NCBI GenBank assembly: GCA_951406725.2 | Contig: OX597821.1 | Coordinates: 27,032,001-27,096,000, forward strand | Source of the DNA: Octopus vulgaris | Lineage: Eukaryota | Direction: 5' to 3' | DNA: 64,000 nucleotides | In this document: one piece after another, positions 33,291-38,000 of the stretch | How the letters are laid out: each line of letters starts with the position of its first letter | Position numbering within the stretch: the stretch's first letter is position 1 | Translations under genes and position numbers: made by a program | Notes under the pieces: model-generated | Told to the model about the DNA's origin: nothing | The model's database searches: none | The model's input: only the letters and a program-made list of their open reading frames with translations

Positions 33291-34705
33291 TCTTACATAA
33301 TTGCAATACAATACCACATGAGCTAACAAACACAAAATATACACAAACTATCTTTAGTTGCCTGCAAACATGATATTGGTAAAAAATGTGAAATGTTGCT
33401 TATTCATTAACCTGAATAAAATATACTTGCAGTATTTCCGTAAAATAATATTAGATGTAGTAATATTCATGATGGCGATAATCTACAACATATTTTAACT
33501 ATATTGATTTATATTCAAATGAACGCAATGCTACCGTAAATGATTTCAGCTTTCTGATTAACCAATCACAAGCTGACTGGTAGATAAATATTATTGTGAA
33601 TATCCTTGAGCCGAGAGCCATTAACGAACCGGTTAGAATCTCATTTGGGCGCAGACGCACACTAACAATATTGTTCACGAAATGAGTGTGTGTGTGTGTG
33701 TGTGTATGTGCTAAGTTTCCTCAAGTTTCCGTTTATGAATTTCTCTCAAATATTATGGGTCAAACAAAAGGTAGGGTAGAAAAGAAATTCATCAGAGTTT
33801 TGAGCATCGAAATCATCCAGAAAACATCGATGAAAAGCGATCATTTTAACAAAGCTTCTATATGTGTATGGGTAAGTCTGTATGTATACATTGGAGGATT
33901 TTAAATGCAATACTCGACCCAAGCTCAAGGCTGATTGAAATTCTGCTGGTCTAAAAACTCCAGGTACCACATCAATAAATCCAATGAATGGAGCTATCGA
34001 AAGTATAATATAATCCAAATATGACAAAAAAGACTTTAGCACATGTTTAATGATCAGTTAGAATTGTTTCGTTACCACTCTGATTTTAATCCCATTGCAC
34101 GCAACACTTCTATGTGGAAAGTTATGTAATATCTTTGGCTTGGAACATTGTACAGCTGTCAAGTGTTGTACTTTGTTTATGGAGAGGAAACAATAAATAT
34201 AAATAAGAATAATCATGGTGAAATAGAGGGCAGGTCTTAGGCAATAAGAATATGAAGTCAAATAAAGAAAGGGTTAAGAGCAGAAAAAGAAAACGAAGTT
34301 GAATGAGAAAAGAAGAGCGAAAACAAAAGAATAGGGAGACGGTATATAGGATATGATAGGTTATTACTATCATATCCGGTAACAAACCAATGATTAAACG
34401 AGAATATAAATGAGAATGAAAACGAAGAAAAGCAGATCTCCTCCTCGACCTCCCCTTCGTGCTCCTCTTCGTGTTCTTTCCTCCTTCTTCTATTTACATT
34501 TTTTCTTTCTTCCTTCTTTCTTTCTTGATTGCTTGCTTGCTTTCTTCTTCTTCTTCTTCTTCTTCTTCTTCTTCTTCTTCTTCTTCTTCTTTTTCCTTCT
34601 ACCTTTATCTGGTTTGCTATTACTATTGTCTAAGACTTGCGTGCAATTTATGTTATTTACATTATTTACATTTGACGGATATTTGTCCTCATCTTGTTTG
34701 TTGTC

Positions 34706-34751
34706 AACACAACGTTTCGGCTGTTGTACCCTCCAGTTTTCATCAGGTGTC
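34706..34751 (-). ncRNA. Minimal HHR motif (left arm; stem II partly mutated)
   Basis: Minus strand: gacac-CTGATGA-A-aactg..cagcc-GAAACGTT^gtgtt. Confidence 0.6.
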
Positions 34752-34816
34752 TCAGGGAAATTTCGAACCTGGGTTCTCAGTCCTAAGGTTCCTTCTCACG
34801 TTCGAAATTTACCCAA

Positions 34817-34862
34817 GACACCTGATGAAGGCTGGAAGGCACATCAGCCGAAACATAGTGTT
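34817..34862 (+). ncRNA. Minimal HHR motif (right arm; stem III ACGT mutated to ACAT)
   Basis: gacac-CTGATGA-A-GGCTG-gaaggcacat-CAGCC-GAAACATA^gtgtt. Confidence 0.65.
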
Positions 34863-34984
34863 AACAACAAACAAGATGAGGACAAATATCCGTTAAATGT
34901 AAATAATGTATATAATTCCTCATCTCTTAAATATAGAACTGTGTGCAATTTGTTTTAAATTTTATACCGTTTCCTTCTGCCAGA

Positions 34985-35089
34985 TTTGACTGGGCCTGAT
35001 GAAGCCTTCTTGCTTCACAGACCCCAGTAGAACCGTCCAACCCATGCTAGCATGGAAAACGGACGCTAAACGATGATGATGATGATGAT
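34985..35089 (+). mobile_element. 3' tail of an RTE-type LINE or its SINE partner
   Basis: AACCGTCCAACCCATGCTAGCATGGAAAACGGACGCTAAAC followed by (GAT)n. Confidence 0.7.
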
Positions 35090-38000
35090 AAGCAATTTAC
35101 AACACTTAACAAACACAATGTAAGAGCGCACGTTTTGATGTATGTCTTCTGATGTACCACTCTAATTTTAGCCAGATAATTGGCACCACAGGGAACAGGT
35201 ATCATTTATCAGAAACTTCAGTGGTGTCACGCCCACATACGACCACAAAGGCGGACCTAGACAGACAAAAAAGACGGAGCTGTTATTGATATTTAATGGC
35301 ATATCCTACTTACCTACAAGAATAATTTAAGTTAATGAGACTCCGCGCACAGAGACCCAAATGATACCGCTCGTGTTTTTATATATAAGAATGAACAACT
35401 AAAAAATCAAAATTAAAATATTTCCTCTTTTTATATTCGCACTAATGGACTCAAAATCTCAAATACACAAAATATTCTCATATCAATAAATAGATGTAGA
35501 TATTTAGGTACTCCAGCTGAAACTTACATGAAGAAACCAACATTTAAAAGTTCATATTGTTTGAAAAATAAATGTAAATACCTTAGGTATGCACTCTTGA
35601 TATTTTCGTTTAGAGGTCCATTTAAAGATCTTCACAAAATAGGATTCGGGCGGTAACTCAAACACTTAGCAATCCTTTAACAAATGTTTGCTTTGTATTT
35701 CTTTATATTTCTTTAAAGTAATCTACATGTGCGTTAAAATTCTTTTATTTGTGTTACGCCTGGAGATTCTATACAACATGCTACTAACTATTGCATTGTT
35801 AACAGAGCGTGGATGATTTCAGACGTTATTCGCATAAGTTAGGTTTTCATTACGTTTTATGTCATGGTAGATATAAACCAGTATTTAGGTCTGGCGATAA
35901 ATCAAGAAAATTCTTTTCTAGTATTATAAAAGTACTTAAATTATTTGTTCCTATTTCTTTCTATTACACTACGCTTCATCTATTTTGAGTGAAGAGATTT
36001 TCTTCCACGTAAAGACCTTACCAGTAATTTAGGAAACTTGTGTCGAGTTACTAGCTCTCATTGTTATATCGAAGTTATTTACTCTGTCACAACAGGACCA
36101 GAATCTGCCTTCATAATCTATAACATGTAGCATACATCTCAAACAATTCAGAATCGGCTATCATATAAAGTAAAGTAAAATTACTCATGGGAAACATTCA
36201 ACACCATTGGATTTATAGAATAGTACTCTGGTATATCAATGAATTTCATGTGTTGCTCATAGACGCACACACACACACACACACACACACACCTACTTAT
36301 ATATACACACATGTACATATATAACAGGTTATGCGTGTGTGCATATCTGAGTGCCTCGCTGCTTTGTTTTTGTAGGAGTATGTGTGGTCATCAACTGGAT
36401 TTCTAGCATAATCACTTTCTCATTAGAGATATATGCATACAATCCGTTTCATTGAATTATTATTATATGATCTTAGATCATTACTCAGGCATTTCTGTTT
36501 TTTGTTTTTCCTGTCAAACGTAGCACAATTTTGTCCAGAAGCATATCGGTAAGAGCTTCCCACTTATGTGTCCATCTAAAATGAATTTTCAGTCCAAACC
36601 TAGATGGTCTCGTCTTTAGACATAAATTACTATTTAGTTTTACCCAATATATGAATTTCCTGCATGAAACGTCCGATCATTTAAACTAATGAAACCACGC
36701 TGCGCATACGAGAATATCTTTACCATGAAAGATTTCAACTTCGTTCTGTTGTCTAACTTTTCATTATTTATCGCCTAATTCATATTTTCCTAAACTGTAG
36801 ACTATTTTACAGCGTTATAGATCTACATTTTAGTCGCTGCAGTGCAAGATTTCCTTAATGAGGGCCATAATATTTTTTATGTCATAAAATCTCCATTTTG
36901 GCTCGTGGAGTACCTTAACATGACCAGCTCAGCACATATGATTATTCATGAGTTGAGCTTCCTTAACGACACATTTTTCCTTTTCCATCAATTCTGTGTT
37001 AGGTGTAGATCTCTGAGTGATGTTTAACATAGGTCTAGACACTTTTGCTGAAATTTCTGGAGTATTCTGTTGTGTCGTCGATACGGAATCTAAGGTGTTT
37101 ATAGTAGAGATGTGCTTACGGAAATATAATTACTGTAAAGCCTGGCTGACAATTTCAAGTTCCTATTGCTAAACACTTGAAGACTCGATTTTTCCTGTAC
37201 AAGAATTTATTTTAATATCCGGAAATTATGTCAGCATCGCGTCTGTCTAAATACGTTTAACCGTCTGGAGAACCTCGTCCGGCTACTTTTAATTCATGCT
37301 CAATTTTATTTAACTTATAGCCAGGACGACAGGACTCTAACATAAATTCTATCAAATGTCCGCCATGTTTAAGTGAAAAAGTATTTTATTCTGTCTTAGG
37401 ATAAATCGACTTTAAACAGAAACTCTGAATTATTGAACTGTTAGAGATTTTCTTCGAAATGATTAATTTCAAGAACTGTTCCATATGACATACAGAGCTC
37501 TTGTTTTCTCTCACCAATTGTTACCATTAATACTTGGAATATGTTGCCACTTTCTTCTAAACTTACCGATTCTTTAATACATGGCAATCATGCCTCAAGT
37601 TATGGATATGACTTTTGTATAAATAATTTAAAAAAAAACTTACTGCTTCCATTTTGAAATCCACGCATTTTTGCGTGCTTTACCACCATTTCAAACCATG
37701 TGTATACCGTTAATTTTGACCTGTTTTTTCGTGTGATCCTATTGTTTTTAATACACCCCACCACCACTGTCTCAAAACATAGCGATTATATTAATCTTGG
37801 TTCTACATTCTAGATTGGTCTATATTTCGCCTTTCCTTTCTCATCACATTTACCGACTCATCGTTCCATAGATCTGCATTACATGTTTTCCTCTTAATTA
37901 CGCTGCTTACCTACGTATTTATCTCTCCAGCTATAACTATATTTAAAGCAGAGGTTATGTATCCAAGTGTAGCGATGCATATACACTGTTTCATACGTTT

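Follow-up and report, generated by a model that had tools for sequence, protein, structure and literature searches.

The window, a stretch of 64,000 nucleotides from contig OX597821.1 of Octopus vulgaris, contains a palindrome whose inverted arms (34653-34771 and 34797-34915) are each 119 nt long, 88% complementary and spaced 25 nt apart. The 331-nt region is predicted to fold at -173.5 kcal/mol (z -23), a value equalled by none of 100 shuffles, and the window holds no further copy of the arm besides these two. On the left lies an inverted, 5′-truncated pLTR arm on the minus strand (34653-34789), which covers element positions 115-251 and is 93.4% identical to the majority sequence of its family; on the right lies a direct 5′-truncated pLTR arm with a tail on the plus strand (34797-34942), which covers positions 133-278 at 93.8% identity. 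The original prediction, made from the letters alone, placed a loop between the arms; the inverted arms are real, but 34772-34789 is further left-arm sequence rather than a loop of the element, and only the 7 nt at the head-to-head junction (34790-34796) are filler. This junction occurs a single time in the 2.8-Gb genome at up to two mismatches. The arms differ by about 6.5% from the majority sequence, with eight changes in each and one common to both, in agreement with the intact ancestor that had been proposed.

The two outer ends of the insertion are not alike. The left arm stops within a run of 9-nt repeats and has no tail, whereas the right arm passes through in-frame 9-nt repeats of the TGTAAATAA type (34898-34915, plus strand), the first of two fixed insertion end points in the family, into a one-sided PLE tail (34916-34942, plus strand) that extends 27 nt past the paired arms and ends at the second fixed point; the tail measures about 35 nt if the last variant repeat is counted in. 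These 27 nt of family sequence are absent from the left arm, and the strand symmetry claimed for the unit does not hold. The right arm is still an open frame of 49 codons, the N-terminal part of a PLE ORF. Between copies of the family, the 9-nt repeat varies in copy number while the ORF frame is kept; as the repeat is also an insertion end point, slippage at the RT start may generate it.

Flanking the insertion are two 9-bp copies of GTGCAATTT on the plus strand (34641-34649 and 34943-34951). Their reading as a true, locus-specific target-site duplication (TSD) is sustained by the presence of both copies and by the family TSD test described below; contigs of four public runs held no joint across the insertion, but none spanned it either, and the TSD at this locus rests on sequence and family statistics. 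A (CTT)n microsatellite occupies 34520-34595, about 45 nt to the left of the insertion. Adjoining the insertion, 34977-35090 is a 3′ fragment from another repeat, one that is much more abundant and ends in (GAT)n; a second CTGATGA at 34996 was considered as a hammerhead and rejected, as it lacks the GAAA core and is part of this repeat.

Both arms carry the motif GACAC-CTGATGA-A-stem II-GAAAC-NUH-GTGTT, giving one minimal type I hammerhead per strand, as predicted (34817-34862 on the plus strand and 34751-34706 on the minus strand), a call that is based on the motif and the published description of minimal HHRs (PMC4209133) and not on a covariance-model match. At gathering thresholds Rfam had no match in the window, and on the family loci it returned only chance matches to hairpins (miRNA-type), in seven loci. 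Metazoan PLE hammerheads of this class have an extra nucleotide before stem II, G10.1-C11.1, a 5-bp stem I and a palindromic, zero-loop stem III, and truncated PLEs carry dual minimal HHRs on opposite strands 100-700 bp apart (PMC4209133). The octopus motifs share these features and the opposite-strand pairing that comes from truncated PLEs, and they differ from the hammerheads described there in a stem II of 5-6 bp instead of 7-8 and in a majority cleavage triplet of GUU. The lesions named in the original prediction are present in both arms: the minus-strand motif has GG>AA at the base of stem II and folds no better than shuffles, and the plus-strand motif, which keeps stems I and II, has a G>A change in stem III (a CpG change) and, in addition, T>A at the cleavage nucleotide. 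With both hammerheads damaged, the locus probably does not self-cleave.

The family and its coding element

With up to one mismatch allowed, a 19-nt hammerhead motif is matched at least 17,796 times across the genome, against none for the control. In the 30 loci fetched with the arm, the family unit runs in the order tRNA-like head, (AAT)n, hammerhead, 9-nt repeats and tail, and some of the 30 loci fetched with the head extend upstream into the C-terminus of an endonuclease. It was through head-bearing loci that the coding partner was found; a genome-wide Pfam search for GIY-YIG returned other PLE families, with the arm in 0 of 30 loci. At 25 of 30 ORF-end loci, head, hammerhead or repeat/tail motifs lie downstream of the CCHH-type endonuclease end in sense orientation, and at most of 30 ORF-start loci the tail, judged by eye, continues without a break into the ORF. 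The pLTR block (head-hammerhead-tail) lies on both sides of the ORF, after its stop and before or into its start. The tile-wise majority sequence, which is a majority reading of the copies, holds a single open RT-endonuclease frame of 835 aa; its start lies within the arm, and the next head comes 29 nt past its stop. Arm and tail thus represent both a PLE pLTR and the beginning of that PLE's ORF. The original prediction is supported in invoking PLE machinery and not supported in its view of the unit as non-coding: the arm consists of coding sequence from an autonomous-type PLE.

Domain order and motifs point to a Penelope/Poseidon-type element. RT pieces are present in two long copies, one such natural piece matching RVT_1 at E 1.3e-8, and the tail peptide, at which the match begins, is identical at 53 of 73 residues to an independent 806-aa relative (P0023; E 1e-32). 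Pfam GIY-YIG gave no score on the endonuclease piece; read by eye against part of the published description (PMC8557442), its CCHH/GIY-YIG motif has a C-x-C lying between its two core motifs and, further on, two His residues, all conserved in the relatives. A CX2-5CxxC finger in the RT-EN linker is absent from the majority protein and from the relatives, and the lack of this finger is a criterion for the Penelope/Poseidon clade (PMC8557442). As in EN+ PLEs, a single ORF with RT and C-terminal endonuclease is accompanied by flanking pLTRs, an inverted truncated copy, a one-sided tail, a variable TSD and a hammerhead motif. A scan of metagenome contigs for relatives yielded one distant locus (35%).

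The closest described systems are Adineta Pen2a (PMC3846280) and anole Poseidon_Ac (PMC11167929), which share with the octopus element a single ORF of about 840 aa with RT and C-terminal endonuclease, a pLTR that overlaps the ORF start and contains a hammerhead, an inverted 5′-truncated pLTR, a one-ended tail, TSDs of 8-10 bp, a short palindrome at the 5′ end of the pLTR, and solo pLTRs. Unlike in those elements, the longest open frame here starts upstream of the hammerhead core and not at stem II. The octopus family looks dead, because its copies have diverged from the majority sequence (by about 5-6%, in samples that favour similar copies) and no intact ORF was found among 150 scored matches, in which the longest open frame is 452 aa. 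Further GIY-YIG matches, L037 and L042 among them, belong to another PLE family with many copies of a 781-aa open frame; that family is probably young or active, and its 3′ region has no match to the palindrome element. Elsewhere (L068/L069, G000:C17:37112826-37116920), a tandem array has units of about 1,030 bp, each with a head-to-repeat copy of the palindrome element between (ATT)n runs.

Assembly of the two-armed copies

The main set for this analysis comprised 87 loci including the window copy, three (L092, L069 and L062) having been dropped as repeats of other loci; 59 were two-armed, and 41 of these had both ends at the fixed points, the 18 with an end elsewhere being left out. Two position-ordered sets retained 25 and 29 of 30 loci each after duplicates were dropped, with 14 of their 38 two-armed copies left out for an end elsewhere; in the position-ordered hammerhead set, 17 of the 25 loci were two-armed. 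Among these two-armed copies, a single end carried the tail in 40/41, 14/16 and 8/8 (62/65 overall); 3 of 65 (1 of 41 in the main set) had it at neither end, and none of the 65 at both. A TSD score of 9 or more was reached by 27/41, 6/16 and 6/8 copies (39/65), compared with 14/1,640, 3/240 and 0/56 mismatched (shuffled) flank pairs (17/1,936); the other 26 of the 65 two-armed copies had no TSD at this threshold. The TSDs are specific to each locus, variable and mostly 9-13 bp long.

Between loci, the centres of two-armed copies vary widely, and the two arms of a copy are truncated independently. They also decay independently: across 45 pairs, 10 of 342 non-CpG changes were shared by the arms of one locus, or 0.22 per pair, where unrelated arms gave 0.13. 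Given a centre specific to each locus and a junction that is unique, each palindrome was most simply made during its own insertion. The idea that the unit is mobilised as a whole is accordingly not upheld; of the two features that the original prediction proposed to look for in copies, shared boundaries and locus-specific TSDs, the TSDs are there and a shared unit is not. It had counted copies with variable ends and no TSDs, or a palindrome unique to the locus, as evidence against itself, and both are found in part (the centre varies and the exact unit is unique), TSDs being nevertheless present. Several complex copies (L002:1473-1891, L078, L213, L220 and L222) have internal inversions or ORF-start pieces between their arms, which suggests several template switches in one insertion.

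We have considerable confidence in reading the window unit as one dead Penelope/Poseidon-type insertion that consists of two 5′-truncated pLTR copies head to head within a 9-bp TSD, and that likely arose from two RT events primed from both strands of a staggered break. The RT-endonuclease would introduce two nicks, one per strand and about 9-13 nt from each other, of which one would prime cDNA synthesis at the 9-nt repeats and the other at the end of the tail; both cDNAs would stop early or at the 5′ end of the RNA, and the two would then be joined by microhomology or a short filler. In the window copy, which has no tRNA-like head, both cDNAs would have stopped short of it, at element positions 115 and 133. 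In vitro, Poseidon_Ac cuts and extends both strands and has two internal RT starts that bound the tail (PMC11167929), and the one-tail rule fits both of these properties. As a route to the palindrome, two primed cDNAs is the account we favour, with moderate confidence.

The same element could have produced palindromes in another way, by fold-back of the cDNA, by self-priming on an antisense template, or through a longer head-to-head insertion that later lost its centre. The 5′ leader is self-complementary (GCCC-AC-GGGC), an inverted centre GT was found for 17 of the 100 head motifs listed compared with 1 of the 100 ORF-linked ones listed, and long palindromes are prone to deletion. Junction palindromes have also been read as a sign of self-priming (PMC3846280). 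Fold-back alone, however, leaves unexplained why, in 62 of 65 copies, one end lies at one fixed site and the other end at the second, in either order, and why the two arms are truncated independently; we regard this group of routes as possible and rather unlikely.

The locus is a known kind of PLE insertion, ordinary PLE debris. All of its main traits have been published before, from the inverted pLTR and the tail at one end to the TSD and the hammerheads paired on opposite strands: PLEs are described with an inverted 5′-truncated copy and a tail of 30-40 bp at one end (PMC8557442), and an inverted pLTR, a 9-bp TSD, a 31-bp tail and a pLTR that covers the first codons have been reported together (PMC3846280). 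What is new in this family is the tRNA-like head.

The tRNA-like head and its possible transcription by Pol III

The head is 74 nt long, has A and B boxes and aligns colinearly with tRNA genes of this genome, 40-46 of 72-74 positions being identical. Compared with seven tRNAs, it scored best against Arg(TCG), and for six of the seven none of 1,000 shuffles did as well; ARAGORN called no tRNA gene in 11 family loci, and Rfam gave no tRNA match on the head. A separate locus, L160, has seven tRNA-Cys-like genes clustered within 3 kb.

Of the copies that extend as far as the head, most have a sharp end at it. Among the arm-query loci, 16 of 30 reach the head start and none of 30 passes position -20, while truncation within the ORF, taken as a comparison for this pile-up, falls on average 427 nt past the query. 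Of the 25 loci in the position-ordered hammerhead set, 17 reach position 16 or less and one continues into the ORF. Genome-wide, the ORF-side 6-mer precedes 128 of 868 exact head motifs, a share that decay of the 6-mer would lift to about a fifth and in which each perfect palindrome is counted two times. The motif is not preceded by the ORF end in 21 of 29 position-ordered loci; in these the sense match stops at or next to a G six bases before the head, the search pattern itself having required those six bases. A 5-bp hairpin at the head start could stall RT without being a start site.

The 2,658-nt (2.66-kb) unit contains no T4 run on its sense strand. In a post hoc test, a codon-permutation null gave a mean of 2.9 runs (P 0.027) and a third-position null a mean of 5.0 (P 0.003), and eight control stretches of 1,790 nt from other PLEs contained 5-17 runs, only those of L037 and L042 lying wholly in long open frames. 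The unit is likewise free of G4 runs (P 0.29 and 0.05), and the T4 argument is somewhat weaker for it. Taken together, the sharp 5′ ends and the lack of T4 suggest a coding retrotransposon that may be transcribed by Pol III. We put forward tentatively, at a little below an even chance, that the template RNA would be started at the tRNA-like head and made by Pol III, most copies then being solo pLTRs from the first 280 nt of the transcript. A slightly less probable and more far-reaching version would have the coding element run wholly from a captured tRNA promoter, with a Pol III start 6 nt before the head and read-through of a 2.66-kb unit purged of T4, and with the two internal starts of an RT dimer yielding tens of thousands of SINE-like, head-to-head palindromes joined via the self-complementary leader.

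Against Pol III stands the observation that the known PLE promoters in pLTRs are of the Pol II type: that of Pen2a is TATA/Inr-like, and Penelope of D. virilis has an internal promoter with an intron (PMC3846280, PMC8557442). Unlike in those two elements, the pLTR here begins with the 74-nt tRNA-like A/B-box head, followed by an (AAT)n run. The literature searched contained no tRNA-headed or Pol III-driven PLE; Repbase, Dfam and a 1994 paper on octopus SINEs lie outside that scope. The main text of an annotation of octopus repeats does not have the words hammerhead or palindrome, and its supplements may list the family (PMC13282606).

Rather than by-products of the coding element, the solo pLTRs could be a non-autonomous family beside it, a PLE-mobilised SINE in which copies with the tRNA-like head would be transcribed by Pol III and re-copied in trans. 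Solo copies do dominate, by the head-start and 6-mer counts given above, and they retain the A box, the B box, the hammerhead and both end points. Among known systems, they resemble tRNA-derived SINEs, which include the octopus families reported by Ohshima and Okada in 1994. That paper is cited in PMC10886601, PMC4758252 and PMC3531059. Like such SINEs, the octopus family has an A/B-box tRNA-like head, a simple-repeat run, a 3′ part derived from a retroelement and many thousand copies; unlike in them, the head belongs to the coding element itself, which also speaks against a separate family, and the 3′ part is a PLE pLTR. At every position, solo pLTRs (79 arm alignments) and ORF-linked ones (68) have the same majority base, and the varying centres mean that palindromic copies are not re-copied whole. 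Moreover, the template of anole Poseidon needs ORF sequence beyond the RT starts (PMC11167929), which solo copies do not have. We consider a separate SINE family doubtful.

Unit mobility, and what the family means

The proposal from which this work began, a non-coding, strand-symmetric, retrozyme-like palindrome that would move as a unit and in which hairpin formation competes with cleavage, now appears very improbable. In its favour, two-armed hammerhead units are very common and bear TSDs, and animal retrozymes derive from pLTRs (bioRxiv 10.64898/2026.07.22.740005). The animal non-LTR retrozymes resemble the octopus units in being short, related to pLTRs and equipped with a type I HHR; the unit in the window differs in its head-to-head truncated arms, in having no tandem units and in showing no sign of moving as a unit, and the head-to-tail array that defines non-LTR retrozymes (bioRxiv 10.64898/2026.07.22.740005) is absent from the locus. 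A unique junction, variable centres, asymmetric ends and an arm that is ORF sequence likewise count against it. The ribozymes themselves point the same way: a strict hammerhead is kept in only 13 of 87 arms, changes between arms are uncompensated, and none of 21 arm 5′ ends, which fall between positions 125 and 235, lies at the predicted cut site. We infer that the hammerheads are passengers of the pLTR; in an insertion assay, hammerhead cleavage was not required (PMC11167929). Long inverted arms would also suit a MITE-like DNA transposon whose terminal inverted repeats are long, and the tail end read inward starts with CAGT, as do some Tc1 ends, but with no tail at both ends in 65 copies, variable TSDs of mostly 9-13 bp that are not TA, and sequence that continues into an RT ORF, its probability is negligible.

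Read as insertions of a PLE, the many dated copies of this family provide a genomic test of how PLEs build inverted insertions. The presence of a tRNA-type head in the pLTR of a coding element blurs the division between SINEs and LINEs. If Pol III does read the ORF, translation must proceed from an uncapped RNA, and solo PLE ends would account for many of the repeats that are annotated as SINEs in this genome.
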